Below are positions 37,587-56,357 of a stretch of 64,000 bases of DNA, piece after piece (within the stretch, counting starts at the first letter, position 1; each line of letters starts with the position of its first letter). Below the pieces are notes generated by a model. The model had not been told where the DNA came from. It saw only the letters and a list, made by a program, of their open reading frames with translations, and did no database searches. The stretch lies in NCBI RefSeq assembly GCF_988243305.1, contig NZ_OZ547136.1; one strand, given 5' to 3'. Position numbers and translations under genes: made by a program.

Positions 37587-39089
37587 TCACAAAATGAAAC
37601 GGATCTGCGCGGCCATGAAGCGGAACTGGTTAACCAGATCCGGTGTACACATCACATCCAGACGGTTACGGTCTTTTGTGTTGCGCTCCACGAGCAGATT
37701 CTTTTTAAAGGTGTCCAGATTTTCGACCAGCCCGAGTTCCACCCATTCTTCCCCCAGTGCAATCAGCTGGAGCGTCATAATCTCCGGCGTCACGATATTC
37801 TGACCGGGCCGGACGGGAGTACCGTTATCGGCCAGTTTGTGGCGCGGGAAACGCTGCGTGATAAAGGTGCGCAGGGAATAACGCAGATATGACAGGGTGT
37901 AGATGGTTTCTACATCCAGATAGCTGGGATCGCTTTCGCCGTATGCATTCTGACGGTACATCGTCACCTGACGTTCAATCTGCACCACATCAGCGGCCGC
38001 AACGGTCACCGTGGACATGCCGGTATAAAGCAGGCTGTTTCGCTCTTCCCGCGTCAGACGAGCCGGTGCTTCAGGTGCCATACGGGCAGGCAGCGCCAGT
38101 GTCTGTAATGGTCGGGCCGGATCCGTTGACAGGGAGGGCGCACAGACCGCACAAATGGAGGCCGCCCAGACATAATCCGGCTCTGGTGCTTTAGGAATAG
38201 AAGTGCAGGTAAACAGGAAGTCATTACGGGATTCACCAAAACTGGTTGCCGTACCGAAGGTGCCGGTATGCGCCATCCAGACCATACCGTCCGACATTTT
38301 TACCGGTCCCCAGCGTTTCAGCAGTTCATCCGCCAGAATTTTGAGATTTGCCGCATCCTTATAGGGCATGACGATGTAGTTGTACTGACGATTCCCCATC
38401 CCTGAGACGCTACGGGTGATATCGGGGTTTGTTGCCTTCTGTGTTGGCGCGACGAGCTCCAGCGTAAGACCGGCCGGTGTAGTTTCACCGTCATAATAGT
38501 TCACCCGTAAATCATGAGCTGAGCATTCACCGATAAAGCGGGCGTTAACCCCCATGCTCCCTTTAAGTCCTTCAGCATTATCACCACTGACTTCAGCTGC
38601 GATAGCAGTGAATGGCGCATCAGTGTCAGCGTTAATGACCTTAGCCAGCTCTTCCACAAGCTCTTTACCTTTTTTCCCCTTACTGACGGGCAGGAGGTAA
38701 CGGCGACCGCCGATGTAAACACTTAACACCCCGTCTGCCAATGCTGTTCCAATGATATTCATCACGCATGCCCTGGACTGACCTGTTCCAGCCCCCTGTG
38801 CAATGGCATATAACTCTGTGTCAGGGTTAATGGCGATAAATTCCTCTACCATCAGTGCAATCATGGAACCTCGCCCCCAGAGTTCTCTTGCTTGTGAAGC
38901 TCGGGTAATACGTACTGGTACATCAAGCTGACCGCGCCCCTGAATGGTGGTGTCTTTCATTGCAGCCTGACCAAACAACAGTACCGCCTGACGCTGTGGT
39001 GGAGTGCCGGTCACGGCCATTGAATTATTGATTTCAATCTGTACCAGCGGAATGCGATTGTTATCGCCGATATAATCAAAGTTAATCAT
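37587..39089 (-). CDS. contractile tail sheath protein
   Basis: 500-aa ORF; size and position typical of myophage sheath. Confidence 0.75.
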   Translation of the reverse strand: MINFDYIGDNNRIPLVQIEINNSMAVTGTPPQRQAVLLFGQAAMKDTTIQGRGQLDVPVRITRASQARELWGRGSMIALMVEEFIAINPDTELYAIAQGAGTGQSRACVMNIIGTALADGVLSVYIGGRRYLLPVSKGKKGKELVEELAKVINADTDAPFTAIAAEVSGDNAEGLKGSMGVNARFIGECSAHDLRVNYYDGETTPAGLTLELVAPTQKATNPDITRSVSGMGNRQYNYIVMPYKDAANLKILADELLKRWGPVKMSDGMVWMAHTGTFGTATSFGESRNDFLFTCTSIPKAPEPDYVWAASICAVCAPSLSTDPARPLQTLALPARMAPEAPARLTREERNSLLYTGMSTVTVAAADVVQIERQVTMYRQNAYGESDPSYLDVETIYTLSYLRYSLRTFITQRFPRHKLADNGTPVRPGQNIVTPEIMTLQLIALGEEWVELGLVENLDTFKKNLLVERNTKDRNRLDVMCTPDLVNQFRFMAAQIRFIL

Positions 39090-39376
39090 CAGGACGTCCC
39101 CTTGTCTGATGCTGCGGGTTTTTCAGTCGCGGGTTTTTCAGTCGCAGGTTTTTCTGCTGCCGCTCCCGCGGGTTTTCCGGCGGCATCAGTCGTTGCAGAC
39201 GCTGCTGCCGGTGCTGCTTCAGCCGCTTTTTCCACCACCATGACGTCCCCGTCATTAAGACGGCGGCACCAGAACGGGGTGAAGGGTTTTTCCTCTCCCT
39301 CCTGCGCCAGCGGTTTCATGGTGTCCGGATCGCGGATCAGGCATCCCGGCGCGGGTTTGATAAAAATGGTTGTCAT
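39089..39376 (-). CDS. hypothetical head-tail joining region protein (Mu gp38 position)
   Basis: 95-aa ORF with Ala/Pro-rich low-complexity C-terminus. Confidence 0.4.
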   Translation of the reverse strand: MTTIFIKPAPGCLIRDPDTMKPLAQEGEEKPFTPFWCRRLNDGDVMVVEKAAEAAPAAASATTDAAGKPAGAAAEKPATEKPATEKPAASDKGTS

Positions 39377-39379
39377 CTG

Positions 39380-39943
39380 TTATTCCTCTGACGGTCCGGC
39401 TTTTTCACCGGCGGCGGTTGCACCTGGCAGGCTGATGTGCGCCTTAAATTCCGGTGTGCCTTCCGGTTCGGTGAAGGTTTCGTAATGGCGCAGGAAATCA
39501 TCCAGCGAGCTGATATCCGTCAGCGGGTCGATCATTTCCTCGCATGAGAAATAAAGGGCGTACATCACGGCTCCGCTGTCGGCCTGCGTTTCGGTGTAAC
39601 CGTTAACCGCCTTTTCAAAGTAAAGCGGTGAGGTTTTTTCGGTTCTGAAGCCGTTCAGTACGGCAATCAGGCGGGCCACAATCTGATAAAGTCCCGGACG
39701 GCTGACCTCACGGCCATTGAGCATGTCGCCGATGACGTAGAACACCCAGTGACTGACCAGACGCCCACGGGTACGCCCTTCACCGGCACCCAGCCAGGCA
39801 ACATAGATAGCCGGGGCGTTAATCAGCATGGTGCGCAGCACGCTGTCGCTCCAGTCGCCGGGATGGGTGTCAACAGACACCAGTTCATTCCCGAAATACT
39901 CACGGATGCGGGCGATATATGCCTGTTCGGTTTCCGTAATCAT
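39380..39943 (-). CDS. hypothetical virion protein (Mu gp37 position)
   Basis: 187-aa ORF; synteny only. Confidence 0.4.
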   Translation of the reverse strand: MITETEQAYIARIREYFGNELVSVDTHPGDWSDSVLRTMLINAPAIYVAWLGAGEGRTRGRLVSHWVFYVIGDMLNGREVSRPGLYQIVARLIAVLNGFRTEKTSPLYFEKAVNGYTETQADSGAVMYALYFSCEEMIDPLTDISSLDDFLRHYETFTEPEGTPEFKAHISLPGATAAGEKAGPSEE

Positions 39944-40359
39944 ATAAAGCCCTTCTGGTTGCGCCCGAACACCGCCGCATCAGACTGCACCTGCGGTAAA
40001 TCCCCGGATTCAGGGGCCGCACCGTCGGTATCCACGCCGACCGGCACATTGCCGTTCATGACGTCTTTCAGCCAGGCCAGCGCCTCACGGTAACGGTCAC
40101 GCGCCTGATCGGATGCCCGCTGATCGCACAGGTAATAAAAGGCAATCGTGCAGCAGTGCTGAACAAGAACCGCCGGAACCACCGCCAGCGGCAGCGTGTA
40201 ACGGGAAGACAGATAGCTGTCGATAAGGGCAGACGCGTCCGTCAGTGCCCGGTTCAGCTTGCGCGTGTCCGGTTCATCCGAACGGGGCACTGCCAGTAAT
40301 GGCCTGAGCAAATCCTCGCGGTAACGTGCCCGCATATCGGTTTCGGTGGCGTAATTCAT
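39940..40359 (-). CDS. hypothetical virion protein (Mu gp36 position)
   Basis: 139-aa ORF; synteny only. Confidence 0.4.
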   Translation of the reverse strand: MNYATETDMRARYREDLLRPLLAVPRSDEPDTRKLNRALTDASALIDSYLSSRYTLPLAVVPAVLVQHCCTIAFYYLCDQRASDQARDRYREALAWLKDVMNGNVPVGVDTDGAAPESGDLPQVQSDAAVFGRNQKGFI

Positions 40360-40709
40360 GCGCGCGCCTTTTTTGCCTGTCTGGCGTTATTGCCGGTCTT
40401 TTTCCGGGGAGCATCCTGTCCGGCTTCGGCTAAATCTGCACCGGTCTCTGCATGAACCACACCCGCCACGGCTCCCGCATCATCACCAGGCGTCTGTAGT
40501 ATTCGTACAGTGAGGCATGGCTCCGCTTCCAGTCGGGCAAGCTGCTCCGGGGTGACGTCAACCTGCTGGCGTCCCCGCATGAACAGGAACCCCGCACGAC
40601 GAAACTGCGCACGACTGCAACGCACTTCTGCCAGTACCGTGACAGGACTGTCACCACTGACCTGAAGGCCTGAATCATCTGTTGCTGCCACAGTGTGATG
40701 TTCATTCAT
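40356..40709 (-). CDS. hypothetical protein downstream of major head gene
   Basis: 117-aa ORF; synteny only. Confidence 0.35.
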   Translation of the reverse strand: MNEHHTVAATDDSGLQVSGDSPVTVLAEVRCSRAQFRRAGFLFMRGRQQVDVTPEQLARLEAEPCLTVRILQTPGDDAGAVAGVVHAETGADLAEAGQDAPRKKTGNNARQAKKARA

Positions 40710-40752
40710 ATTTGCCCTCCGCAGGGGCCGGGCCGTAAGCCCGGCTCACCGT

Positions 40753-41700
40753 TTACAGATAATCCGCGACAACCAGCTCCAGCTTGCCCTTCATCTCGTT
40801 AGAGACGGTGGTGTTACCGTCCGCGAACAGCTCGCGCTCCAGCAGCTGCACCGCCTGTTTTTCCAGCGAGGTGGGGACAACAATATGGGTGGGTTTGATG
40901 CCGAGTTTGCGGCCACCGTCAGCCTTAAAGTCACGCATGGCTGACCAGCCGTGCCACAGCGCATCCAGCGTCAGCGGTGACTGCATCATGTAGGCCATCT
41001 GCCAGAAGCCGTAGCCCACATTGCGACGGGCGGAAGCACCGAACACAAACTCGTTATCAGTAAACGCACGGCCTTCATCGACTTTTGTCTGGGCAACCAG
41101 TTCGGCCTTGCGGCGATCCTGATAAATCAGCGGTTTTACCGCGCGGGAGCAGTCAAGCAGATACCAGGCCGGGCCGCTGTAATCCGCCTGTGCACCGACA
41201 GAGCCGGTTTTTGCCACAAACATATTGCTGACCATCTGTGCATCACCGGAGCCATCCACTTTGGGGTAAACAGGGTGTTCGGTATCAAAGAAGTTCTGGC
41301 CGTCATAGCAGGCCGCATTCAGACCATCACGCAGTGCAGCAAAGACCAGTTCATCCGGTTGTGCCGCCGCAGCGCGCCCCATCTCCTGGAACAACGGGGA
41401 GTAGATGCCAAGATTGTCGTCTTCAAAGTCATCGCGGCTAATGGCAACGGTGCCTTCAAAGGTTTTGTTCACGATGGCGTAGCCATAGGCTTTCATCTTC
41501 TCGATGACGCGGGAGCCGATCCACTCACGGAACTGCGGGAACTGCCCCAGCCAGCCGTAGGTGTTGGATTTCGACGTGGACGGTACGGTCATCGCAATTT
41601 TCTGGTACTGAGACGGAGCCATGGACATCCCGGCCTGAAAATCAGAACGGTAGCCCGTCATCAGGGCGGTGATCATCGCCGGTGTGATCGGGGTAGGCAT
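40753..41700 (-). CDS. major head subunit (Mu T-like)
   Basis: 315-aa ORF immediately downstream of protease/scaffold gene. Confidence 0.7.
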   Translation of the reverse strand: MPTPITPAMITALMTGYRSDFQAGMSMAPSQYQKIAMTVPSTSKSNTYGWLGQFPQFREWIGSRVIEKMKAYGYAIVNKTFEGTVAISRDDFEDDNLGIYSPLFQEMGRAAAAQPDELVFAALRDGLNAACYDGQNFFDTEHPVYPKVDGSGDAQMVSNMFVAKTGSVGAQADYSGPAWYLLDCSRAVKPLIYQDRRKAELVAQTKVDEGRAFTDNEFVFGASARRNVGYGFWQMAYMMQSPLTLDALWHGWSAMRDFKADGGRKLGIKPTHIVVPTSLEKQAVQLLERELFADGNTTVSNEMKGKLELVVADYL

Positions 41701-42824
41701 TATTGCATTTCCTCTTTCATTTTCAGGAACTCGGCTTCGGTTTTACCCAGCAGATGGGCGGCGGCGATATCTTCAGCCGACAGCGCAGCGGTGGCGGTCT
41801 TTTTATCCGGCACGGTTACGGTGTCGGTCTGAAGAGTGGTCAGAGCCGCAACCGGCTGGCGGGCGTCAAGCTGTGCAGAAAGTGCCGCAACACCAATCTG
41901 TTGTCCGAGTCCTTCCATGTATCCGCGTTCGCTTTTGAAAATGCGTCCTTCGGACTCGGCCTTATCCAGCAACTGCTCCAGCGTGGTGCAGCCGTGTTGT
42001 GCCGACAACGCGACATATTCGGTACGCAGGGCGTTATACGTCTCAACGGGCACGTATTTCGTCAGATCAATAGTGCCGCCAGTTGGTGTGCCTTTTGCGG
42101 TTTCCAGCTCTGCCGACAGGCTGGCAACCTGCGTTTTCAGGGTGTCGTGCGCATCCGCACGGGTTTTGAGCCCGGTAAGGGCAGACAGCGCCGCCGTGCC
42201 CAGTTCCGGTGTAAATTCGTCACCGTCGGCCACGGTCAGACCGAGCGCCGTCAGCAACTGGCGTAATTGCTCATTCATGGAGGTGTCCTTTAAAGGAGGG
42301 TTTAAGGCGTTATAAAGGTCATCCGCCGACAGTGCGGCGACAGGATTCATGCCAGTCAGACCGGGGTCACCGGTAATAGCCAGCATCCGAAGCTCAACAG
42401 GTTCACCGGTGATTTCGTCATAACCAATCACCGGGGAAAACCAGGGAAATTCGTTATTGCGCAGGTGTTCAATGGCCGGAGGGTTCCAGTCCGGACGCAC
42501 TTCAAAACCCCGCTCTTCACTGAAGCGGAAGTTTTCCGGTGAGGCCATGACAAAACCGGCAGCCGGTGCCGGATGCCCCTTAATCAGGGTCTGGTGGTTG
42601 TAGTCAATTTTTACCGGCTGATTGAGCGCCACAACCCGGGATACCATGCGCTCAACGGCCGCATGGTTAATCAGCCAGCCTTCCGCCGGTTTTTCCGGGC
42701 GACCGTCACGGGCCTTTACCCGACCGGCTGGCATGATCTGACACCAGTCACCGTCCCCGTCTGCGGACAGGCTGATGGCATTCAGAATGGCATAAGCAAG
42801 TTTGGGCGTGTTTTTCGTCTTCAT
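41700..42824 (-). CDS. head maturation protease/scaffold (Mu I-like)
   Basis: 374-aa ORF with coiled-coil C-terminal half, upstream of major head gene. Confidence 0.65.
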   Translation of the reverse strand: MKTKNTPKLAYAILNAISLSADGDGDWCQIMPAGRVKARDGRPEKPAEGWLINHAAVERMVSRVVALNQPVKIDYNHQTLIKGHPAPAAGFVMASPENFRFSEERGFEVRPDWNPPAIEHLRNNEFPWFSPVIGYDEITGEPVELRMLAITGDPGLTGMNPVAALSADDLYNALNPPLKDTSMNEQLRQLLTALGLTVADGDEFTPELGTAALSALTGLKTRADAHDTLKTQVASLSAELETAKGTPTGGTIDLTKYVPVETYNALRTEYVALSAQHGCTTLEQLLDKAESEGRIFKSERGYMEGLGQQIGVAALSAQLDARQPVAALTTLQTDTVTVPDKKTATAALSAEDIAAAHLLGKTEAEFLKMKEEMQ

Positions 42825-43001
42825 TCCGGCAGCATAAGCCGGTGTTTTTCGGGGCCGGTTTTGCGGGACTTCAGAAAGTGCTGACAGGGGAAAAATGAGA
42901 AAGGCGCTTCACGCAGATTTTAAAGCCCGTTAAATACAGGTTAGAAAATCACGACACGCGCCTGAAGAGGGTAAGGTAATGCGTTTGTATACCTTAAACC
43001 A

Positions 43002-43475
43002 TTACGGCGTTTCTGTGGCCTTTTTAAAGCGTTTTCTGATTTCGTCCATGATCTCCTGTTCTGCCACCTGATCAAAGCCCATATACGGACGTGCGCCAAT
43101 GGCCGCCGGTCCCGGTGGCATACCAGGCAGGCCACCCCACTGATGAATGGCCGCATAAGGTTCATTTGATCCAATCAGCGCCCAGGTATCGCCATAATCC
43201 GTGGTCAGGCGGCGGGCCAGATCGCCGTTCAGTGTCAGGATTTTGCCGGGCGTGTATCCCTTACGGGTACGCCACTTGCGGTAAGGATCTGACCAGTCAT
43301 GCCAGCGTTCGCCGTCCGGCTCTTTTTCCTGTTCAAACGCCATTTCTGACGATGACAGAAGACTCTCCGCCACACTGCGGGCCAGGTCTTTTCCGCCGCC
43401 CACAAACTGAAGCCGGGCAAACACCCGCTGGAGACGCGTAACGTCAACAACGACAGTGGCATCAATGGATGACAT
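43002..43475 (-). CDS. virion morphogenesis protein (Mu G-like)
   Basis: 157-aa ORF between F-like and I-like genes. Confidence 0.55.
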   Translation of the reverse strand: MSSIDATVVVDVTRLQRVFARLQFVGGGKDLARSVAESLLSSSEMAFEQEKEPDGERWHDWSDPYRKWRTRKGYTPGKILTLNGDLARRLTTDYGDTWALIGSNEPYAAIHQWGGLPGMPPGPAAIGARPYMGFDQVAEQEIMDEIRKRFKKATETP

Positions 43476-43596
43476 ATTGCCTCCGCATAAAGGATGAATA
43501 TAAAATAAACAGGCGGTCAGTGTACGCTTAACTGGTAAAGTCGGTGCCTGCCTCCGGGTGGATCATGTATGCGGGTTCGACCCCCGCCACTGACCG

Positions 43597-44928
43597 TTAA
43601 TCAATTTGTCCTTCCAGCACCTCAAGCATTCCGCCCCGGATATCCGATTTCAGCTTATCCATATTGATAACCCGGTAAGCATTCACAATCACATCCAGTT
43701 TGTCGGGCTGATGTTTCAGACTGTACGGTGCATTAACGGCAATCTGCACACTGCCATCCTTATTTTCCACGATATACATCAGATTTTTGTGCCGTTTGTC
43801 CCACAGCACCGCTTTTGGCTTTGCCAGCATTGCCGGTAAGCGCCCGAAGTCCTCTGGCATCAGGGCGATGCCGTCATTCTGATGTTTCACACTGTCTGCA
43901 TGGAGCACATTTTTACCGCTCATCGCCAGCAGGCGGGCCGGTGGCGTTCCCGTCCGGCTTTCCACTGCCTGCGCAATGCTTTCAGTCATAAAGCCCAGCG
44001 TGCGGATATCGTTACCACCTCGCCGGGTCTGCATGATGTTTTTTGCCCAGATGCGGAACGCCAGCTGCCGCTCCGGGCTGTTGTTCATCTCCTGAACCAC
44101 CATTTCCCGTAACGCCGGGCTTTTCACCTCGATCAGTTTGCGGATCAGCGCCTGGTCTGTGCCGAACGCTGCCGAGCCGGGGTTATATGACCAGCCCACA
44201 TCCGGTGTCATGGTTCTGGTGCCATCTGAATATGTGGTCACCGGCATTTCTCTGACTTCTCCGGTCTGTTTATCCACGCCAGCCTCAACATTGCGGGTGG
44301 AGAGATGATCCTCACCGGATGAAACGGATAACCCCATTGCATCCAGACGAGCCTGAGACAATGGCCGCACACGGCAGCGGCAGTTCCAGCCATTAGGTGG
44401 GTAGTGTGTTTTCCAGAACGGATCGTCATAGCGGAATACCAGACCGTTAAGGGCGGAATGCGACGGGCGGGTACGGCTGTCCATGACCGCCACATACTGC
44501 CAGAACGGATGCGTGTCCGTGTTGTTCATCATCTGCGTGTAACGCCCGGCATTGTAAGCCACACGGGTGTTCACGTTGTAAATCAGCGCCAGACGACGGG
44601 GACTGCCCAGTTGCACTTCTTCCGCGTTACCGTCGCTGTCCACCACAATCTGCTTTCCCCACCATCCCAGCTTTTGCAGGCGTGGCGTCAGCGTGCGGAT
44701 AAATGCTTTCTGTGAAATTCCCTCATCAATGGCCCGCTGCACTTCGGCCTGTAACGTGGTCACCACATCCAGGCGTGCCGCTTTTGCTGCCGTGAATGAG
44801 CGGGCATGAACATCCGCGGCTGTTTCGAACCAGTTCCAGCTGATATGCGCCCCTTTGACACGGAAGTATGCTACCGCCTCTTTTGAGGGAAGCGTGGCGG
44901 CATAACCTAAATCAATCCCCTGTGTCAT
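43597..44928 (-). CDS. head morphogenesis protein (Mu F-like)
   Basis: 443-aa ORF containing NGWNCRCR motif typical of Mu F/SPP1 gp7 family. Confidence 0.7.
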   Translation of the reverse strand: MTQGIDLGYAATLPSKEAVAYFRVKGAHISWNWFETAADVHARSFTAAKAARLDVVTTLQAEVQRAIDEGISQKAFIRTLTPRLQKLGWWGKQIVVDSDGNAEEVQLGSPRRLALIYNVNTRVAYNAGRYTQMMNNTDTHPFWQYVAVMDSRTRPSHSALNGLVFRYDDPFWKTHYPPNGWNCRCRVRPLSQARLDAMGLSVSSGEDHLSTRNVEAGVDKQTGEVREMPVTTYSDGTRTMTPDVGWSYNPGSAAFGTDQALIRKLIEVKSPALREMVVQEMNNSPERQLAFRIWAKNIMQTRRGGNDIRTLGFMTESIAQAVESRTGTPPARLLAMSGKNVLHADSVKHQNDGIALMPEDFGRLPAMLAKPKAVLWDKRHKNLMYIVENKDGSVQIAVNAPYSLKHQPDKLDVIVNAYRVINMDKLKSDIRGGMLEVLEGQID

Positions 44929-46501
44929 CCAGCATCCCCTTCATTTCCGCAGCAAACATGGCATCACTGAGCAGCGTCATCAGGCGGGAATCATCCATTT
45001 CACGATAAAGGGCAGGCAGGTCTGCCAGCGCATCCGCCAGCCCCCGCGTTCTGATGGCATCAATGACCGGCTCCAGTACCGGGTCGATGGCCTCCTGTAA
45101 GCGGCGGGCAGGCACCGCGTCCCCCATATCATCCAGTTCATCACGCGGCGTGCTTTTCGCTTCCGGCAGTCTGGCTGACAGCGCCGTCTGCTCTGTTTTT
45201 TCCTGTTTTTCCGGTGGTGTTTCCCTGTCGGTCTGAGCCGGTTCATTGCCACTCTGACGGACACGGAATATGGCTTCACCGGGCGTGGGCTGCGGAATAC
45301 CGGTCTGCTCCCGTATCCAGGGATCAGAAATATCCATCCCCGTACTGAGCTGCATCACCGCACTGGTGATTTTGGTGATATCACCTGGTTCTTTGGTCTG
45401 GAAGCAGATACGTGGCAGACGGCGGATATCAATAGTGTGCGTGGTGTTCAGGGCGTACAGCGGATACACCAGATCGCGGTTCAGGGTTGCAGCCAGCTGC
45501 CGTAAATCAGAATCCCTGATTTCCCGGCGCACCTCGTTATGCACCTCACCCAGCGAGCGCGCGCCTTTGTCTCCGGCTTCCGTGGTCAGCGTGCCGCCGA
45601 GTATTGCTTTGGAGATGGAACGCTCCCCCCACGAAATCATGGTTTCAAATGGATCGGCCTGACCGTTTGCTGCCGCCTGAAATTCCAGCGACATCCCGGC
45701 CGGGATGATCCCGCCTGTACGTCGCCCGATATCCATCACCGCCCGCATCAGGGCGCTTTTCTGCTCCGGTGTTGCCCCGGACGGGTATTTCCCGACCTTC
45801 ATCGGCAGTCCGTACACCTCCAGAAATTCGGCCAGATCGCGCACGGAATAGTTTTTGAAAATGAACGGCCAGATAAGCGTCCTGACAAGCCCCGTTGCGC
45901 CACCGTAACCGGTCCGTGAACGTGACTGATGCACTATCCAGCCAAAAGGCTGAAACGCCACCCCGGCATGGCTGCCGTCACGCAGCCGCAGTTCGCTCAA
46001 ATCATCCGGGTTAAGGCAGAAATGCCCGCTGTCACGCCAGCGGATGGCGCGGATGATGTGCATTTTACCGAGCATCCCGTGCTCAATTTCCATGCAGGAA
46101 TAGCCCTTCAGGATGGCATCCGTGGCGTCAAACAGCATGGCATCAAACCAGTCTGCGGAATGCAGATATTCGTCGAGCATTTCCGCGTCCTTTTTCTCAT
46201 TCGCGCTGGCGTTCGGTGGCGGCTCAATACTCCATGGCACCCCCTGAATGGCAAGACGTCGCTTGCCCAGCTCCGCAAAAAGGTGGGTGTCCTTTTCTTC
46301 AATATCAGCGGCCAGATCGGACTGGGCAATCAGATCGCCACGTTCAGCCCCGCGAAGGCACTGCGCCGCCCGGTTCGGGGTGATACCCGAAGCCGGATGT
46401 TCAATATAACGGCTGGCAATCTGCGGAATATCCAGCGCGGCACTCTGCATCTCCGGGTCAAAGGAGAAAGGTTTTCCGTCAGTATCAATGATGCGTCCCA
46501 C
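44912..46501 (-). CDS. portal protein (Mu H-like)
   Basis: 529-aa ORF directly downstream of large terminase. Confidence 0.7.
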   Translation of the reverse strand: MGRIIDTDGKPFSFDPEMQSAALDIPQIASRYIEHPASGITPNRAAQCLRGAERGDLIAQSDLAADIEEKDTHLFAELGKRRLAIQGVPWSIEPPPNASANEKKDAEMLDEYLHSADWFDAMLFDATDAILKGYSCMEIEHGMLGKMHIIRAIRWRDSGHFCLNPDDLSELRLRDGSHAGVAFQPFGWIVHQSRSRTGYGGATGLVRTLIWPFIFKNYSVRDLAEFLEVYGLPMKVGKYPSGATPEQKSALMRAVMDIGRRTGGIIPAGMSLEFQAAANGQADPFETMISWGERSISKAILGGTLTTEAGDKGARSLGEVHNEVRREIRDSDLRQLAATLNRDLVYPLYALNTTHTIDIRRLPRICFQTKEPGDITKITSAVMQLSTGMDISDPWIREQTGIPQPTPGEAIFRVRQSGNEPAQTDRETPPEKQEKTEQTALSARLPEAKSTPRDELDDMGDAVPARRLQEAIDPVLEPVIDAIRTRGLADALADLPALYREMDDSRLMTLLSDAMFAAEMKGMLDDTGD

Positions 46502-48168
46502 TACCAGCCCCCCCGATCAAATTCATGATATGCCTCATCGTCATCACGATAACCGCCCTCCATTGCCCGCGACCGCTCCGGTAGCGCCTGACAGGCTGAT
46601 TCATCCAGGATGAAGCCCTCCATGTATGACGCCCGGTTTGCCATACAGAGCGCCACGGCAAAATCACCATGGCGGCGGGCGTTCGCAGCCGTTGCGTTCT
46701 GGTCCTTCGTGCGCCCCTTGTCGATTTGCGGGATACCATTCACTACCTTCACATGGCGCAAATCATCAAGCGTGGTCTGATGGCGGGCGACGAGGATATT
46801 CTGATCTTCAAACTCGGCTTTCAGTTTTGGCATCCACTCGCCGTACCACTTCGGCGACAACATCACGCAGTCGATGATATCCGGGCCAAAGGCCAGCAGT
46901 GCGGCCTCTGCCAGATAGCCGCCGTTACCGGTGGCGTCGAACGCCGCACCGACCAGCGCCGGAACGCGGGTCAGGATGTACATCATCACCTGTTCCTGCT
47001 GGGCATACGGCAGGTTGCGCAGCTCCACGCGAAACACCTCGCGCTTTGCCAGGGATTCGGTGATTTCCAGCAGCACAAAGCAGGACAGGTCACCGGTGCG
47101 GGCAAAGTCTTCCCCGAAGCTGAAGCGGGAACGGGGATTTAATTTCTCTAAAAGCGGTTTTAAATGTTCTTCACACCAGGTTAAAACTTCCGATTCACGC
47201 AGCCATGCGGCACGGCTGATGAAGTTGTCCGGGGCTTCAAACGTCAGAATCGGGATGTCGCGGATCATCGCCATTTCAATAAGCGCGTGGGGGATATAGG
47301 CACCGCCGGATTTTTTCGGGATACAGCCGTATTCCTCGTCGGCATCCTCACGGGTCGGGGCGTTTTTGTAGAGATCATCACGCCATTTCTGCTCGCTTTC
47401 CGGTGACCATTCCTGATCGGTGACGTAACAGATACGACGGTACAGCCCGTCCGCAATGGCATCATCCAGGGTTATGCGGTGGACGCTGTAATCCTTGCGC
47501 CCCTCGCGGGCTTCCTGAATGTACTGATTAAACAGATTATCGACGCCGTTATGCGTGGAGATAATACGCACGCGCGCGCCCCACATAGTGAGCGCCATTG
47601 CCGCCTTGAGAAGCTCATCCAGTGACTCGTGGAACGCGGCTTCATCAATCACCACATCCCCCTGAAGGCCGCGCAGGTTTGACGGACGGGAAGACAATGC
47701 CTGAATTTTGAATCCACTGTTCGGAAAGCGGATCATGTAGGTCAAAATTTCTTCTTTTTTATCCCGATCCCAGAATGTCTGCTCATACACATCAGCATCT
47801 GCCAGCTGGTTAAAGGCACGGGAGAACAGCGCGCAGGCAGAAATATATTCCAGCGCCATCTCCTGCTTTGATCCCACATAAAACACATTGCGGCCACCAC
47901 GACGCTTCGGTTTTGCAGCAGTAATGACGTTACGCCCGGCTTCCGCCCAGGTAAGACCGGTGCGGCGGGATTTCTCCGCGATGCAGACCTGACTTTCATC
48001 TGCAAACCAGCGGGCCTGATAATCCAGAAACACCGGCATATCACCGGGCAAATCAAGGCTGTCCGGCACATCCACGCCCAGCAGGGCTTTTTCACCTGAC
48101 AGATCAATTTTGCGGGGAGGCGTCATTTGCATCAGTGAAGGCGACGTTTCTCTGGCTTTGTTCATCAT
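46501..48168 (-). CDS. terminase large subunit
   Basis: 555-aa ORF; size and position upstream of portal. Confidence 0.75.
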   Translation of the reverse strand: MMNKARETSPSLMQMTPPRKIDLSGEKALLGVDVPDSLDLPGDMPVFLDYQARWFADESQVCIAEKSRRTGLTWAEAGRNVITAAKPKRRGGRNVFYVGSKQEMALEYISACALFSRAFNQLADADVYEQTFWDRDKKEEILTYMIRFPNSGFKIQALSSRPSNLRGLQGDVVIDEAAFHESLDELLKAAMALTMWGARVRIISTHNGVDNLFNQYIQEAREGRKDYSVHRITLDDAIADGLYRRICYVTDQEWSPESEQKWRDDLYKNAPTREDADEEYGCIPKKSGGAYIPHALIEMAMIRDIPILTFEAPDNFISRAAWLRESEVLTWCEEHLKPLLEKLNPRSRFSFGEDFARTGDLSCFVLLEITESLAKREVFRVELRNLPYAQQEQVMMYILTRVPALVGAAFDATGNGGYLAEAALLAFGPDIIDCVMLSPKWYGEWMPKLKAEFEDQNILVARHQTTLDDLRHVKVVNGIPQIDKGRTKDQNATAANARRHGDFAVALCMANRASYMEGFILDESACQALPERSRAMEGGYRDDDEAYHEFDRGGW

Positions 48169-48413
48169 GCTTTACCTGTCAGAATGCTTTTGATTCGGGA
48201 CTCAAGCTCTTCAGTCATCACGTCCACGCCGCTCAACTCATCAGTGGCAGCCTCTGCCAGCAGCGAATGCAGTTGTTCCAGGGATATTTCCCCGGCAATG
48301 CTGAGTTCAGTCAACTCACGACATACCTTTATGGTTTCAGGAGGTAACTGTGTTGCAAGACTGAATGCTTTCTGATGGGCACTGCTCATCAGTGAGCGGT
48401 TATCTGTTGCCAT
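48165..48413 (-). CDS. hypothetical protein, paralogue of C-terminal segment of the upstream gp27-like protein
   Basis: C-terminus AATDELSGVDVMTEELESRIKSILTGKA aligns with AVTDELRGVDGMSEQIEFRIRQMLLGKA of ORF 48424..49005. Confidence 0.4.
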   Translation of the reverse strand: MATDNRSLMSSAHQKAFSLATQLPPETIKVCRELTELSIAGEISLEQLHSLLAEAATDELSGVDVMTEELESRIKSILTGKA

Positions 48414-48423
48414 GATTCACCTC

Positions 48424-49005
48424 CTACGCCTTACCCAGCAGCATCTGCCTGATACGGAATTCGATCTGCTCGCTCATGCCATCCACGCCGCGCAACTCAT
48501 CGGTGACCGCATTCGCCATCTCTTCAGCAAATGCGGCCCGGATTTCTTTTTCACGCTTAATGCTGCGCTCGGCGGCACTTTCTGCACGCTGTGCCGACAG
48601 GAGGATGTCCTTAATAAGGCGCATATCCACATCGCTGTCGCTGTTCAGGGATTCGGTGGCGGCACGCAGACGGCGGTACATCAGGGCACGGGACATCTCC
48701 AGAATCAGTGCCGTGGTTTCACCGGTCGGCTTATCCCCCAGTTCGGCCATCATGGCTTTTGTCTGCTCGCGTAAATCACGCAGATTACGGGCAATCAGCT
48801 CATTACGGGAGGCTTCCCGGCTGATGGCCGCCGGTGAGAGCTGCTGCTCTTCCGGCAGACCTGCTTCACGGATCAGACGGTTGATTTCCTCGCGGATCTG
48901 GACCTGCGTCAGACGTTTTTCACGCAGCATTTCCAGCAGCGGCTTACGGATGCTGTCGGGGAGCAAATCCACCTTGCGTACACGGCCACGCGTCGGCTTA
49001 TCCAT
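48424..49005 (-). CDS. terminase small subunit-like protein (Mu D/gp27 position)
   Basis: 193-aa ORF upstream of large terminase; synteny. Confidence 0.55.
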   Translation of the reverse strand: MDKPTRGRVRKVDLLPDSIRKPLLEMLREKRLTQVQIREEINRLIREAGLPEEQQLSPAAISREASRNELIARNLRDLREQTKAMMAELGDKPTGETTALILEMSRALMYRRLRAATESLNSDSDVDMRLIKDILLSAQRAESAAERSIKREKEIRAAFAEEMANAVTDELRGVDGMSEQIEFRIRQMLLGKA

Positions 49006-49007
49006 CG

Positions 49008-49298
49008 TTACCCCCTTGCGCGTGGTTTCTTCACACCCGGAACAGTGGCACGACCTTCCGCCACATCCTGACCCCGGCCGGTCAGTTCAGCGATGAAATA
49101 ACCGTTAACAAGCGTGCGCTTACGCACCAGTCCCTGCTCAGCAAGCCAGGCAATGTGGGTGTGAACGGTGTCGCGGGACACGCGGTGGCCGTAATCATCC
49201 AGGCAGTCCTGAAGCACGGATTCGCCCAGTTCGCCGTTGTAATCCGCCAGCGACCGCAGAATGACAAGACGCTGATCTTCAGTAATGAAATCACTCAT
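49008..49298 (-). CDS. hypothetical protein (Mu gp26 position)
   Basis: 96-aa ORF; synteny only. Confidence 0.4.
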   Translation of the reverse strand: MSDFITEDQRLVILRSLADYNGELGESVLQDCLDDYGHRVSRDTVHTHIAWLAEQGLVRKRTLVNGYFIAELTGRGQDVAEGRATVPGVKKPRARG

Positions 49299-49602
49299 TG
49301 TGTTTTTTCCTTACAGCCTGCTCCAGCAGCAGTTCGTTCTGGTGGGAGACGGATTTCAGGGTGGCATTGGTGGCCTTAAGCTCACCGCGCAGGGTGGTGA
49401 TTTCGATATTGAGTCTGTTCACCTCCTGCTGCGTGGGCAGGCCGGAAATCCGGCTCTCCACCCGCTCAACCCGGTCGGAGAGTTTTTCAAAGGCCTCGCG
49501 GGGGACAAAGGTTTTGCGCATCAGCGCCATAAAGATCCCCCCGGCCGTGGCTGTTGCCGACAGGATCGGCACGACATAATCTTTAACGATGCTGACCCAC
49601 AT
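49291..49602 (-). CDS. hypothetical membrane protein (single TM helix; Mu gp25 position)
   Basis: N-terminal hydrophobic segment VVPILSATATAGGIFMALM then coiled coil. Confidence 0.4.
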   Translation of the reverse strand: MWVSIVKDYVVPILSATATAGGIFMALMRKTFVPREAFEKLSDRVERVESRISGLPTQQEVNRLNIEITTLRGELKATNATLKSVSHQNELLLEQAVRKKHNE

Positions 49603-49810
49603 GACCGGCCTCCATGATGCTCTGGCAGTTCACACAACGGATGGCATCCGGCACGGCAACCAGACGGGCGGCCGGAATGTCACCCCCGCAGTCTGCGCAT
49701 ACACGCCTGCCCGGAGTCTCCTCCACCCGGCACTTACGTGTCAGCCGGTCACAAAGGGCGCGTTCTGTTGCCCGCTCCACGACTGCCTGAGCACAATCTG
49801 AATCATCCAT
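49583..49810 (-). CDS. TraR/DksA-family C4 zinc-finger protein
   Basis: Start at MDDSDCAQAVVER within longer ORF; CADCGGDIPAARLVAVPDAIRCVNCQ four-Cys motif. Confidence 0.6.
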   Translation of the reverse strand: MDDSDCAQAVVERATERALCDRLTRKCRVEETPGRRVCADCGGDIPAARLVAVPDAIRCVNCQSIMEAGHVGQHR

Positions 49811-49820
49811 ACCTTTTTCC

Positions 49821-50192
49821 TTACTTCGTCTTTCCTGCCGGAACAGCAGTCGTTCCGGCCATATCAGTAAATTCATGCTGTCGCTGTGCCTCCAGACGGC
49901 GGATGCTGGCCTTGTCCACGTTGCAGTTCTTAATCACCGCCAGCAGTTGCAGGTTGTAAGTGACCGATGCGCCAAACGTGAACGGCTGCGGCACAGGAGG
50001 AACCAGACAGTCAGCCAGCCATTCAGCGGGGATCGGCACCGGCTTCACCGGCACGTATTTCACAGACGGCCCGCCGCACCCGGTCAGCCACATCATCAGG
50101 CACAGGAACAGAGGCCGCAGGCACCGTTGCCAGCGACCGGCGGACAATGCTCTGCTGTTCCTCGCTGTGCTGCATGTTCTGCTGTTTTTCAT
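49821..50192 (-). CDS. putative outer-membrane spanin lipoprotein (o-spanin)
   Basis: Lipobox LTGC after hydrophobic stretch, Pro-rich periplasmic part; begins inside i-spanin frame. Confidence 0.45.
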   Translation of the reverse strand: MKNSRTCSTARNSRALSAGRWQRCLRPLFLCLMMWLTGCGGPSVKYVPVKPVPIPAEWLADCLVPPVPQPFTFGASVTYNLQLLAVIKNCNVDKASIRRLEAQRQHEFTDMAGTTAVPAGKTK

Positions 50193-50523
50193 TCGTGGCC
50201 GCCTTACTGATTTGTGAAATGAGTTGCAGGGTACGTTGCTGGTTTGCCAGCACCAGACGGGCTTCGTCCCGTTCACGCACAAGCACATGATTATTGTCTT
50301 CAAGACGCTGTGTCTTCTGGTGCATTCCCCATACCACGGCAGCCAGCACGCTCATCACCCCCAGCGCCGCCATACACCCTCCGGCAATCAGGGCCGGTAA
50401 GGGATTATTCACCGCAGCCACAGCACACCCCGGAGCACCACAACGACACACAACAGCGCAATCATGAGTGGTCGCCAGAAGCGGTTCAGACTTTCGGCAA
50501 ATCGTAGCGACATAACCATTCAT
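50023..50523 (-). CDS. putative inner-membrane spanin (i-spanin)
   Basis: TM segment ALIAGGCMAALGVMSVLAAVVWGM followed by coiled coil; immediately downstream of endolysin; start uncertain. Confidence 0.4.
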   Translation of the reverse strand: MNGYVATICRKSEPLLATTHDCAVVCRCGAPGCAVAAVNNPLPALIAGGCMAALGVMSVLAAVVWGMHQKTQRLEDNNHVLVRERDEARLVLANQQRTLQLISQISKAATNEKQQNMQHSEEQQSIVRRSLATVPAASVPVPDDVADRVRRAVCEIRAGEAGADPR

Positions 50524-50986
50524 CCGCCGAACGGCGGGCCTCAAGACCGGGGAGTTTTACCCCCTTTGAATAAATCCAGCGGATATACTGCTTACAGGAC
50601 GCGGGCATCTGCCCGGCATTGATCAGGCGCAGAAGCGTGGAGTTGCGAAAGTTCGTTTCACCGGCCCAGAAGATCCACGAAGCCAGCGCCACCGTCTGAC
50701 CACGGGTAAGCGGCACCTGAACATGACGATCGATAGCCGCAAAGGCCCATTTCATGTCCTTTTCCAGCAGTTCCAGACATTCTTCATCGGTTTTTGTCAT
50801 ACCCGGTTTCACATCCGGGCCGGTATGGCCGTGGCAGATGGTGGGGGTGCCGGTGGGGTCGAGATACGTGGTGTTTTCTTTCCCTTCCCAGTAGCCGGTG
50901 TAGTGCGTGGCAATAGTGAACGTCCCGGCTCCGGCCAGAACAAGGGCAATCAGCTTTTTACGCAGTGGCGCGGGGAGTTTTGGCAT
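50486..50986 (-). CDS. endolysin (GH24 lysozyme) with N-terminal signal-anchor-release-like segment
   Basis: E...D...T catalytic pattern (YWEGKENTTYLDPTGTPTICHGHTG) after hydrophobic Gly/Ala-rich N-terminus KLIALVLAGAGTFTIA. Confidence 0.8.
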   Translation of the reverse strand: MPKLPAPLRKKLIALVLAGAGTFTIATHYTGYWEGKENTTYLDPTGTPTICHGHTGPDVKPGMTKTDEECLELLEKDMKWAFAAIDRHVQVPLTRGQTVALASWIFWAGETNFRNSTLLRLINAGQMPASCKQYIRWIYSKGVKLPGLEARRSADEWLCRYDLPKV

Positions 50987-51057
50987 TGTTACGCTGTCTC
51001 ATGGTGTTCTCTGAGCCAGCGTAACCGTGGGAAAAAGGGGGCAGGATTTGCGGAATA

Positions 51058-51480
51058 TCAGAAAAGCCGGGGCTGCGTGCGCTCCTGATGCAGGCGACGC
51101 TGGTTGCGGATAACGGAGTAAATCTGCGTCTCTGACATCTGGTAATGGCGGCGCAGGGTTTCAATTTTTTCGCCCTGGCTCCAGCGGGAAAAAATTTCAT
51201 TATTGCGCAGTTCGGTGAAAAGGGATTCACCGACCGGGAGATAATAACCACGCCCGCCCATGTACCCGGCCTGTGCGGCTGCAACCTTACGGGCAAGCAT
51301 TCCCGCCTGAGCAGGTTCAATCCCCTGACGGTGCAGTTCAGCACTGATCACATCAACCAGGTCCCGCAGCGTGCCGGGCCAGTTCTTTTTCAGCTCATCA
51401 TCAGGAATATCATCCAGACGGTCAATCAGCGCGTGCAGCTGTTCGCTGTCACCAAACATGCTCATCTGTGTTTCAGCCAT
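51058..51480 (-). CDS. Mor/C-family transcriptional activator
   Basis: 140-aa ORF with C-terminal HTH LRRHYQMSETQIYSVIRNQRR resembling Mu Mor/C. Confidence 0.7.
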   Translation of the reverse strand: MAETQMSMFGDSEQLHALIDRLDDIPDDELKKNWPGTLRDLVDVISAELHRQGIEPAQAGMLARKVAAAQAGYMGGRGYYLPVGESLFTELRNNEIFSRWSQGEKIETLRRHYQMSETQIYSVIRNQRRLHQERTQPRLF

Positions 51481-51550
51481 ACCCGCCTCCGGTCATCATT
51501 ACACAGGGCAAGTTTAAAATAAAAATCCCGCGCTGTGGCGGGATTTGGGG

Positions 51551-52063
51551 TTAAAAGGGGGAGGATTCTTCATACAGCCTGCAAACGCGCTCATAACTCA
51601 TCACTGTACGCGCTGACATCCCCAGCACATCCAGCATCTTGCGGCGGTGCCAGCGTTTGAGACGCTCCAGCACATCAGAGGCCAGCGCGGGGTGTTGTTC
51701 CAGCCACTGCCAGTTAGCCACACCTTCGCCGCCGTTCTGAGCGACCGTCTGCGATTTCACCCAGCGGTTAAGGGCTGTTTCCCCGCCATCAGAGATAAAG
51801 CCCTGCCGGTGCATCACCTTCCAGATGGCGCGAATTTTGGCGGTCACCGTACCCGGTTTTAAGGCCCGGTTAACCGGCTTCTGACGCACTTTAAAACCGC
51901 GTTTTTTGAAAACATCCAGCACGCGGGATAACTCATCCGGTGACATATCCCGGCAACTGGGTTTACCGGTGGCTGCCAGTAGTACGGATGTGTAGGTCTC
52001 ATGGTCAAGCTGTAGATCGCGTTTTGCGACATGTATTAAGGTAATCAGGGAAGCGCGATTCAT
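51551..52063 (-). CDS. GemA/gp16-like protein
   Basis: N-terminus MNRASLITLIHVAKRDLQLDHETYTSVLLAATGKPSCRDMSPDELSRVL resembles Mu-like gp16 (GemA) family as I remember it. Confidence 0.6.
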   Translation of the reverse strand: MNRASLITLIHVAKRDLQLDHETYTSVLLAATGKPSCRDMSPDELSRVLDVFKKRGFKVRQKPVNRALKPGTVTAKIRAIWKVMHRQGFISDGGETALNRWVKSQTVAQNGGEGVANWQWLEQHPALASDVLERLKRWHRRKMLDVLGMSARTVMSYERVCRLYEESSPF

Positions 52064-52127
52064 TATCGTGTCTCCGTAACAACAGGCGGCATGGCAACGC
52101 CGCCCGGATAAAACTAAAGGTATCGAT

Positions 52128-52475
52128 ATGAAAATAGATTACGATGAAGTATTAAGTATTCTCACAACTTTTCAGGATGCTGAAACACCTTTCCTTACAC
52201 TACAGGATCTGGGCATGGCTGAGGCAGAAGGAGAGGAAAAGGATAAAAAAGTTTTTCATCTTATGCTTCTCGCTGATAATGGCTCAATTGTTAATGGTGA
52301 TATGCAGTCAGAAACACCCAAATATATTGGTTTCTTTTTCCATTCTCTGGGCGTTGGTTTCAGAAACACGCCCATTATGCTTACCCAGCAGGGGCATGAT
52401 TTAGCTAACGCCCTGAGAAAAAACCAATCCTTGAAAGAATCAAAAAGGAGTTTACAGACGCACCATTTGATCTAA
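52128..52475 (+). CDS. hypothetical protein (115 aa) on opposite strand within early operon, low GC
   Basis: AAAGG SD 7 nt upstream of ATG; AT-rich; only plus-strand gene in this otherwise minus-strand early region. Confidence 0.5.
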   Translation: MKIDYDEVLSILTTFQDAETPFLTLQDLGMAEAEGEEKDKKVFHLMLLADNGSIVNGDMQSETPKYIGFFFHSLGVGFRNTPIMLTQQGHDLANALRKNQSLKESKRSLQTHHLI

Positions 52476-52498
52476 TTAAAGAAGTTACCAAATCAATG

Positions 52499-52807
52499 TT
52501 AACCAGGTTCGTCAAAGAACGTATTGGGATTGACTGAACAACTTAATTCAGCCAGTAATCGCAGGGCGGCGACAGCCGCCTGCTTGTCACTTCTTTTAGC
52601 TATTTCCGCAAGAGTATGCACAATCCATAACGGACTTAACGCCACGGCTGAATCCAGAATCATGTCATCCATAATAATTTCTGGCATATCCCGCTTGTCA
52701 CATTCTTTATCCATAAAAGAAACGAATTTCTCTGCATCTTCCGGTTTCATGCCTCCGGCGATAAGGATTTTGCGATATTCATAAGACGATCTTAATTCAA
52801 TACTCAT
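52499..52807 (-). CDS. hypothetical protein (102 aa)
   Basis: ORF in low-GC island. Confidence 0.4.
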   Translation of the reverse strand: MSIELRSSYEYRKILIAGGMKPEDAEKFVSFMDKECDKRDMPEIIMDDMILDSAVALSPLWIVHTLAEIAKRSDKQAAVAALRLLAELSCSVNPNTFFDEPG

Positions 52808-52822
52808 TATTCACCTGCCTGC

Positions 52823-53215
52823 TTAATCTGTTTCCAGTGCTTTGCTACGGGCTATAGCCTCACATTCAAAAAATACCGACTCCGGCACGCGCTCTTTTAA
52901 TTCACGAACAAGGAAATCATTAACGCGTTCATGACGTCTTATATTTCTTTCCTTTTCCTCCTGGCGCAATACAGCAAGGCGGTATTCAACAGCCCGGCGT
53001 TGTTTCTGAAAGACAGCCAGTGCTTTTCTGGCAGCATTACGCCATGCATCATCGCCACATGGTGCGTATTCAAGCTGAAATTTAATCTCTTCAATAGTTT
53101 CTTTGATTTTTGCCAGCAAGCTAAGACAGTCGCTTATTGTCTCCAGCTTTTCATTATCAATATAACTTCTCACGCATTCACCTCCCGTAATTCCGGTAAA
53201 GCCGAAATATGACAC
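52823..53215 (-). CDS. hypothetical coiled-coil protein (start probably internal)
   Basis: ORF overlaps upstream gene by 46 nt; Lys/Glu/Arg-rich. Confidence 0.4.
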   Translation of the reverse strand: MSYFGFTGITGGECVRSYIDNEKLETISDCLSLLAKIKETIEEIKFQLEYAPCGDDAWRNAARKALAVFQKQRRAVEYRLAVLRQEEKERNIRRHERVNDFLVRELKERVPESVFFECEAIARSKALETD

Positions 53216-53499
53216 CAGTGCGTCACCTGTCCGTCTTCATCTTCAAGGCAGGCTCCGGTTTCTTCATCAACAAAAAAGCCTTCATACCCCATATGGCCGA
53301 TGCGCAGCTCCTGACGGTGACCATACTGAACAATCAGCACGACAGCCTCCATATCAGGTGGGAAAGTATCATTCAGTGAATGCCAGGGATAACCGCGTAA
53401 ATCCCCGAAATAAACACCGGTCAGCGTTCCGCCACAGAGCGGCATTCCGGCGGCACACACAAGAGGTTCATCTGATTCAACAAATAAGGTCGTTATCAT
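53170..53499 (-). CDS. hypothetical protein (109 aa)
   Basis: ORF, 4-nt overlap with upstream gene. Confidence 0.4.
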   Translation of the reverse strand: MITTLFVESDEPLVCAAGMPLCGGTLTGVYFGDLRGYPWHSLNDTFPPDMEAVVLIVQYGHRQELRIGHMGYEGFFVDEETGACLEDEDGQVTHWCHISALPELREVNA

Positions 53500-54047
53500 G
53501 GCGTTAACTCCCGTAATACAGCGTCCTCGGCAGTCCGGCGACGGTAATAAACTGCGTGAGCAGAATGTTCAGATATTCCAAACTTTTCGCCAATTTCCCG
53601 GAATGACAGACGGCGTGGGTAATCGGAATCACGCAGCGCACGTATAAGACGTACATCATCATCAGATATGCGCGTGCCGGGGCGTAACTCTCCGCACTTT
53701 GTTAATCCAGCACCAATCATTCCTGCCCGACATCTGACAGAATCTTTATTACGTCCGAGATATTCTCCCATTTGCTGGCAGGTCATTGTTCTGGCATTTT
53801 TTCGAATAAACTTATCTTCATCAGGTGTAAATCTTGGGTGTTTATATTTCAGTAACTCCGGGTATGAACTGCGCAATACACCAGTCCGGTTATATACAGC
53901 CCAGACAGTTCTTTTTATTCTGGCAGCAATATCCTTAACCGGGGTGGATGAATAAAGCGCAATCAGCAGCGCATCTTCTTCAGGTGTCCACGGACGGACA
54001 TGAGCGGGGGCGCGACCTTTTAGTCCCATGGGTTGTAATTTCATCAT
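53496..54047 (-). CDS. hypothetical DNA-binding protein with repeated HTH-like modules
   Basis: Three similar segments WTPEEDALLIALY...IKRTVWAVYNR / FTPDEDKFIRKNAR...MGEYLGRNKDSVR / ISDDDVRLIRALR...FREIGEKFGISEHSAHAVYYRR. Confidence 0.45.
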   Translation of the reverse strand: MMKLQPMGLKGRAPAHVRPWTPEEDALLIALYSSTPVKDIAARIKRTVWAVYNRTGVLRSSYPELLKYKHPRFTPDEDKFIRKNARTMTCQQMGEYLGRNKDSVRCRAGMIGAGLTKCGELRPGTRISDDDVRLIRALRDSDYPRRLSFREIGEKFGISEHSAHAVYYRRRTAEDAVLRELTP

Positions 54048-54050
54048 GCA

Positions 54051-55099: not shown

Positions 55100-55244
55100 G
55101 ATTTATTTCCCCACCACATTATTAATGACGATATAAACGTATTTCATATTTCTTAACCCTTATTTTCTGTTTTCAGGCGCAAGCAGTCCCCTGACGCGAG
55201 CGCCATAATTAAAATGAAGTGATATTTAATTGATTAATGCGGTG

Positions 55245-55775: not shown

Positions 55776-55786
55776 TTTGTTTTTCC

Positions 55787-56107: not shown

Positions 56108-56357
56108 TACCGTTAATAACCCCGGAAGCCATGCCTCTGTCTTTCATGAATGCACTGGCTTTCATTGCCACAAGCTCTGCGAAGTTTCTGCTTTCCGCGA
56201 GCATAACCACCCCAAAAATCATGGCGGGTCCATCACCTTTCTGCTTTATCCCGGTTGAACGTATGTCCAGACTTACCCCCATGCGCACTGTTCCATCAGC
56301 GTTTTTATGGATAACGTGCTCCTTATATTCGAAAATAATGTGTACGACTTTACTCAT
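56085..56357 (-). CDS. hypothetical protein (90 aa), tandem paralogue B
   Basis: Starts MSKVVHIIFEYKEHVIHKNADG. Confidence 0.4.
   Translation of the reverse strand: MSKVVHIIFEYKEHVIHKNADGTVRMGVSLDIRSTGIKQKGDGPAMIFGVVMLAESRNFAELVAMKASAFMKDRGMASGVINGNEFNQQG

Follow-up and report, generated by a model that had tools for sequence, protein, structure and literature searches.

The gene-free G-I interval of an Sp18-type Mu-like prophage of Escherichia coli probably combines a predicted strong gyrase site, a terminator-like hairpin and a putative late promoter

The 177-bp interval between the G-like virion morphogenesis gene and the I protease/scaffold gene of an Escherichia coli Mu-like prophage corresponds to the control region that phage Mu has between G and I, with which it shares the same locus and not merely the same relative position. 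We give a probability of about 0.78 to the reading that this interval is a non-coding composite, in which a predicted strong gyrase site (SGS), a terminator-like hairpin and the late promoter P_I follow one another end to end on the minus strand (Table 1). The interval was delimited in a 64,000-nucleotide stretch of DNA, hereafter the window, where it occupies positions 42825-43001 and is flanked by two minus-strand ORFs. A preliminary description of the same DNA had placed a gap of about 177 bp between a G-like gene and a protease gene; the length proves exact, and Pfam assigns the neighbours to the corresponding families. The element is already known biology for Mu and for the Sp18-type phage. 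Mildly new are the activator box of its putative promoter, the possibly leaderless transcript of I and the breadth over which the predicted gyrase site is conserved in its right arm.

Table 1. Positions of the predicted and putative elements of the G-I gap and of the two flanking genes, in window coordinates.
Feature	Position	Strand	Details
G-like virion morphogenesis gene	43002..43475	-	157 aa; Pfam PF05069 (family including Mu G), E=2.9e-34
Predicted strong gyrase site	about 42919..43048	.	130-bp footprint, from -63 to +66 relative to the predicted stagger
Predicted 4-bp cleavage stagger (AACG, minus strand)	42982..42985	.	position only, from the Mu distance from the G stop codon
Predicted SGS right arm, phased T(n)A(n) tracts	42918..42965	.	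TTTTCTAA 42941-42948; TTTAA 42930-42934; TTTAAAA 42918-42924
Terminator-like RNA hairpin (42904-42959) and U-rich run CUUUCUCAUUUUU (42891-42903)	42891..42959	-	RNAfold
Putative C-like activator site TTTCTGAAGTCCCGCAAA	42860..42877	-	about -53 to -36 of P_I; aligns with the Mu P_I box GCATAACCCC
Inverted repeat CCGGC 42838-42842 / GCCGG 42826-42830	42826..42842	.	brackets the putative -10
Putative -10 hexamer TATGCT	42831..42836	-	23 nt past the activator site, 6 nt before the I start codon
I protease/scaffold gene	41700..42824	-	374 aa; Pfam PF10123 (Mu-like prophage I protein), E=5e-75

The host DNA is E. coli chromosome, and the prophage, of the Sp18 type, is inserted in dcyD; in 5375 E. 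coli genomes the two flanking sequences adjoin each other, and they lie in that gene. The prophage limits, drawn from a comparison with Sp18 (E. coli O157:H7 Sakai) and from the appearance of the termini, are 22419..61496 on the minus strand (39.08 kb), with the left end (TGTAACC...) at 61496. Neighbouring prophage genes encode homologues of Mu F, of the major head protein T, of transposase A and of B, together with an activator of the Mor/C family (Pfam), and the G-like gene retains about 70% DNA identity to G of Mu and D108. The segment is present in 227 of 5426 complete E. coli genomes (about 4%), O157:H7 among them, and the gap is 99.8% identical to that of E. coli strain FORC_069.

Several features of the surroundings are recorded here for completeness. 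The prophage junctions (22419-22422 and 61497-61500) carry a direct repeat of 4 bp, which reads TGTA in the plus-strand sense, where Mu typically leaves a 5-bp duplication; Sp18 is bordered by TAAA on both sides, and record LC727881 annotates a 4-bp duplication. If the 4-bp repeat is the target duplication, the right end of the prophage finishes ...GCGCTATA, not ...CA. A host cluster of three tRNA genes (15460-15759, minus strand; Rfam 54-69 bits) lies about 6.7 kb beyond that end. Within the late region, F and G are separated by a 121-bp spacer (43476-43596), whereas in Mu the two genes overlap and no spacer exists. The spacer holds a tRNA-like sequence at 43516-43595 on the plus strand, antisense to the late genes, which scores 31 bits against Rfam RF00005 (gathering score 29), with acceptor and T arms intact and an aberrant anticodon arm. 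This sequence is not called by ARAGORN, is absent from the gathering scan of the whole window and folds with z=-0.66.

The position of the gap corresponds closely to that of the Mu gyrase site, as had been suggested. Measured from the prophage left end, the gap lies at 18.50-18.67 kb, in agreement with the earlier estimate of about 18.5 kb, that is at 47.6% of the 39.08 kb, which puts it roughly 1 kb to the left of the true midpoint. In the curated Mu record, the 196-bp interval from the end of G (17859) to the start of I (18056) carries an annotated gyrase cut site at 17879/80, a terminator predicted by TransTermHP at 17908-17953 and the late promoter P_I at 17977-18043. The Mu cut site falls at 17,879 of 36,717 bp, or 48.7%, in the same G-I locus, and the Mu interval, too, is a boundary between two late operons.

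Sequence similarity to Mu is concentrated in one part of this interval. When the gap is compared by blastn with the whole 36.7-kb Mu genome, the best match is Mu 17901-17970 (E=6.7e-5). In an ungapped alignment registered on the G stop codon, 21 of 24 positions of the right arm (positions 52-75) are identical, while the cleavage core (positions 1-39) agrees at only 9 of 39, the level expected by chance; the core is thus unrelated to that of Mu, and no conserved core is found. This division fits reports that the Mu SGS has an essential right arm and a dispensable left arm (PMC10052514; PMC13284261), and because the essential determinant is reported to lie in the right arm, the lack of a conserved core does not exclude function. 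The right-arm tracts of the window are centred 57.5, 70 and 81 bp past the G stop codon, with spacings of 12.5 and 11 bp. Those at 57.5 and 70 bp share their distance from the stop codon with Mu, whereas the tract at 81 bp is an extra one, a helical turn further right, and the first tract of Mu, T6A4, is missing from the window.

The footprint given in Table 1 takes its register from Mu, in which the stagger occupies positions 17-20 after the G stop codon. In that register gyrase would cut some 17-20 bp past the G stop codon of the prophage, and the right arm would wrap on a GyrA C-terminal domain. The footprint reaches about 47 bp into the 3' end of G, which would supply the dispensable left arm, and the gap itself holds the centre and the right arm only. 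For Topo-Seq, a Mu SGS fragment of 133 bp was used (Sutormin et al., 2018, supplement); it corresponds to Mu 17813-17945, and when it is aligned on the palindromic centre of the consensus, the stagger fits the annotated Mu cut. With the register so fixed, the pattern of strong and weak bases (S/W) in the right arm of the window follows the Topo-Seq consensus with z=2.98, within the top 0.2% of placements; the Mu right arm gives z=3.38 in the same test (top 0.04%). The left arms of the window and of Mu yield no signal in this test, so that the phasing is confined to the right arm in both.

Scans made without a preset register are less informative. When the 133-bp consensus is turned into a crude, unguided scan for strong and weak bases, the known Mu SGS does not come out first in Mu, and the S/W consensus was dropped as a de novo detector and applied only with the register preset by homology. 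A scan for AT periodicity of 10-11 bp places the Mu right arm at rank 46 of 36,676 placements and the window gap at rank 414 of 39,038 (top 1%), a result that is suggestive but not discriminating. The gyrase sites of pSC101 and pBR322 and the Topo-Seq motif resemble the predicted site in their 130-bp footprint and in having arms of periodic AT/GC content that are wrapped on the GyrA C-terminal domain, although the two plasmid sites have no sequence homology to it. Its near-central placement between the same flanking genes and its homologous, phased right arm support the prediction of a Mu-type SGS.

The consequences of such a site can be outlined by carrying over to this prophage the loop-extrusion mechanism developed from work on Mu. 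At induction, gyrase at the near-central site would supercoil the DNA processively, and the 39-kb prophage would be pushed out into a plectonemic loop whose apex is the site. Extrusion of this loop would draw the left and right prophage ends to each other for assembly of the transpososome.

A close known counterpart of the element is that of Sp18, the Mu-like prophage of Sakai, annotated as 'Mu-like phage' at 5040971-5079729 of NC_002695; it is of the same phage type but is inserted in sorM and not in dcyD. From a citation in the review literature, we take its central gyrase site to be the one studied by Oram and Pato in 2004. That site is reportedly cleaved by E. coli gyrase and is said to support enhanced processive supercoiling. 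The gap of the window and that of Sp18 are 91% identical, with 15 substitutions and one indel, none of which falls in 42900-42967, so that the right arm and the hairpin are 100% identical. Four of the differences (43000, 42988, 42983 and 42968) lie in the core, that at 42983 within the predicted stagger, and the remaining 11 substitutions and the indel lie in the promoter part of the gap. In a review (PMC10052514), the SGS of the Sakai Mu-like prophage is the only foreign site described as promoting Mu replication, whereas other known strong gyrase sites placed at the Mu centre are described there as failing to do so. The interpretation as a gyrase site is supported by this comparison, because the right arm equals that of Sp18, whose site reportedly replaces the Mu SGS.

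Comparison of the gap among related prophages, which the preliminary description had proposed, bears this pattern out. Across 14 distinct Sp18-type sequences, 5 of 68 positions vary in the block of right arm and hairpin, while G and I together vary at 75 of their 291 third-codon positions (Fisher p=6e-4). In these sequences, core and promoter spacers vary at the level of synonymous sites, and the constrained blocks of the gap at the level of non-synonymous codon positions. Phased tracts (at least two T(n)A(n) tracts 9.5-13 bp apart) are found in 42 of 49 distinct G-downstream segments of IMG/VR relatives, and the tract-bearing relatives extend to those whose G proteins are only 41% identical. 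In these relatives the tracts usually lie about 36, 57 and 68-70 bp past the G stop codon; Sp18-type phages lack the first, at about 36 bp, which is found in most other sampled lineages.

Where the start of I can be called, the G-I gap is free of ORFs and 135-238 bp long in all lineages but one. The exception among the relatives is L037 (same contig as L074), with the only long gap, of 676 bp. It contains an AT-rich cassette with an antisense 117-aa ORF (2159-2512, minus strand), whose N-terminus is hydrophobic and for which PHROG gives no match; the cassette sits between the phased tracts and I, as a moron in the slot where Pseudomonas phages keep anti-CRISPR genes. In seven further relatives (L006, L012, L014, L019, L021, L027 and L002), the G protein is 98-100% identical to that of the window but I only 69-79%, which indicates a mosaic junction at or near the gap.

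A terminator-like hairpin overlaps the predicted right arm. The RNA of 42885-42960 on the minus strand folds at -16.8 kcal/mol with z=-2.55 (RNAfold), and the equivalent hairpin of Mu, an annotated terminator, has z=-3.71. The U-run of the window is interrupted, and a simple terminator scan makes no minus-strand call at the hairpin. In the L030 and L036 lineages, other hairpins followed by a T-run occupy the same place. This segment is the probable end of the lys-to-G late transcript, and hairpin and U-run together would bring that transcript to a close. In both Mu and the window, the conserved tracts make up the hairpin's 5' half and pair, in different registers, with 3' halves that are unrelated; the terminator hairpin of L030 is situated downstream of its tracts. 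The tracts are thus kept as DNA sequence and the hairpin as structure, which argues for two overlapping functions. Since the conserved block overlaps the hairpin, part of its conservation could serve termination and not gyrase.

The I-proximal 53 bp of the gap (42825-42877) look like a C-dependent late promoter, the putative P_I of this prophage. Mu possesses four annotated C-dependent late promoters, namely Plys, P_I, P_P and Pmom, which share a ccATAAcCcC motif about 28 nt upstream of a TAnnnT -10. Like Mu P_I, the candidate promoter of the window lies directly upstream of I and has a TAnnnT-type -10 and no -35; its activator box recurs at the lys promoter of the same phage, and the prophage encodes a C homologue. 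In a multiple alignment, the box and the -10 (CAAACT) of Mu P_I align with CCGCAAAACC and TATGCT of the window, and TATGCT aligns also with TAAGCT of the L030-type lineage and CACACT of L036. The C box of Mu (ccATAAcCcC; TTAT-N6-ATAA in Pmom) is nevertheless absent from CCGCAAAACC, the aligned window sequence, and the box of the window instead reads TTTCTG-N6-CGCAAA. A diverged box is plausible, given that the C homologue of the prophage (51058-51480) is only 40% identical to Mu C. A scan for sigma-70 consensus promoters finds none in the gap, as expected for an activator-dependent promoter without a -35. In the proposed arrangement, a C-like (Mor-family) activator would bind the box and drive I from the TATGCT -10.

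The distribution of the box is consistent with this assignment. Exact matches to TTTCTG-N6-CGCAAA occur only twice on the two strands of the 64 kb, at 42860-42877(-) in the gap and at 51047-51064(-) upstream of lys; with up to two mismatches, 15 matches are obtained against 8.9 expected from shuffles. A third copy, with one mismatch, comes right after the gin-like invertase gene (26917-27489) and occupies 26895-26912(-), the place taken by Pmom in Mu. All three boxes are followed, 22-23 nt on, by TATGCT, TACGCT or TATTCT (TAnnCT). The third, with TATTCT 22 nt downstream, precedes a 684-aa ORF (24777-26831) that is absent from Mu. No convincing site for a P_P-like promoter is found within the N gene, and 8-mers that the gap has in common with other parts of the prophage gave no useful information. 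Among the Sp18-type sequences, 2 of the 18 positions of the activator box vary and 1 of the 13 in the segment from the -10 to the ATG. The inverted repeat that surrounds the -10 forms a plus-strand terminator-like site, followed by TGTTTTT, and similar CCG...CGG repeats stand at the same place in the L030-type and L036 lineages.

The putative promoter lies close to the gene that it would serve. Between the end of its -10 and the ATG of I there are 6 nt in the window, and 6-7 nt in the L030-type and L036 lineages. The sequence upstream of I, CTTATGCTGCCGGA-ATG, contains no Shine-Dalgarno motif; most other late genes have GGAGG-like motifs. We consider the start codon of I to be correct because the N-terminus is conserved with that of Mu I. 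From the closeness of the -10 to the AUG, we infer that the I transcript probably starts at the AUG or within a base or two of it, and the I mRNA of the window prophage may be leaderless. Mu I, in contrast, would have a leader that carries a Shine-Dalgarno motif and measures about 26 nt, as derived from the Mu record, in which the promoter features are uniformly 67 nt long and a ribosome-binding site is annotated. In six relatives (L030-L035, same contigs as L066-L071) and in L072, a stop-free frame is continuous with I and has an ATG in the terminator-like hairpin, 81 nt past the G stop (80 nt in L034/L070); this ATG precedes the conserved start of I by 32 codons, and the frame may be due to chance or may represent an N-terminally extended I.

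The putative P_I lies about 80 bp from the gyrase right arm, and expression of the head genes could therefore couple to local supercoiling. A wider proposal, in which P_I is fused to I, the leaderless mRNA is translated only from P_I and expression is coupled to supercoiling set by gyrase, is a speculation that we put forward with considerable doubt. It covers the Sp18-type phages and two related enterobacterial Mu-like lineages, but not Mu.

The gap could instead be a transcription boundary only, consisting of the lys-to-G terminator and P_I, with the block conserved for its hairpin and with no special tie to gyrase. This alternative draws on the overlap of the hairpin and U-rich run with the conserved block, on the Mu terminator annotated at the same place, on the unconserved core and on the unguided motif and periodicity scans, which do not single the site out. 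It does not explain, however, why tract sequence and helical phasing are conserved across lineages while the pairing is not, as seen in Mu, the window and L030, nor why the tracts keep a constant spacing from the G stop codon and coincide with those phases of the Topo-Seq right arm that prefer AT. Moreover, the Sp18 site, identical in the block, is reported in the review cited above (PMC10052514) to replace the Mu SGS. On this evidence we regard a boundary without a gyrase site as unlikely, and we retain the composite that includes one.

Two further alternatives concern the content of the gap, and both are far less probable. According to one, the gap is an empty slot for morons or anti-CRISPR genes, a functionless spacer between recombining head-gene modules. 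Pseudomonas Mu-like phages do have anti-CRISPR genes in the interval that separates G from the protease/scaffold gene (PMC3993853), as the preliminary description had pointed out, and both the 676-bp gap of L037 with its antisense ORF and the mosaic junction implied by near-identical G and divergent I genes would suit such a slot. The gap of the window, however, shares the slot of the JBD30/D3112-group Pseudomonas phages without their cargo, being gene-free and holding cis elements only: no acr or aca small ORFs, nor other accessory ones, are found between G and the protease gene, where the longest gap ORF has 18 aa. A neutral spacer would also differ from what is observed, since blocks of the gap are constrained and recognisable from Mu to relatives with 41% identical G, which means that this DNA is not mere spacer; L037 itself retains the phased tracts upstream of its cargo. 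We therefore consider an empty slot very improbable. The other alternative, that the gap encodes a small protein or a small RNA, appears the least probable of all. Its main attraction is D108 (L040), in which a 42-aa CDS, '31.5', is annotated at 615-743 across the D108 gyrase site in the G-I gap, in a frame that is also open in Mu. This CDS begins with ATC, belongs to no PHROG family and lies in a frame that is closed in the window, where all three sense frames are closed across the gap; it was rejected as a small-protein counterpart and is probably not a gene. The longest ORFs wholly inside the gap have 13 aa (sense) and 18 aa (antisense), Rfam gives no family match in the gap at E<=1, and the substitutions among relatives show no codon pattern and cluster in the spacers.

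These results also settle what had been said earlier of the coding capacity and nature of the gap. The absence of any ORF of at least 60 aa is confirmed; the longer ORFs, 42941..43174(-) with 77 aa and 42573..42884(+) with 103 aa, only intrude from the neighbours and are frame-shifted or antisense. A conserved small ORF, named in advance as a finding that would speak against a cis-acting element, is not found in the gap by comparison of ORFs and frames. The proposal of a purely cis-acting element holds insofar as the gap is non-coding and the cis reading is supported, but it requires amendment in that the element is composite and the predicted gyrase footprint extends beyond the gap into G.

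The comparisons described above illustrate that a functional non-coding element can be recognised from its position together with the absence of ORFs. In this element the cleavage core appears free to vary, while the right arm with its phased tracts is recognisable across 42 of 49 junctions. The predicted gyrase site, terminator-like hairpin and putative P_I thus provide testable annotations for a type of prophage carried by about 4% of complete E. coli genomes.
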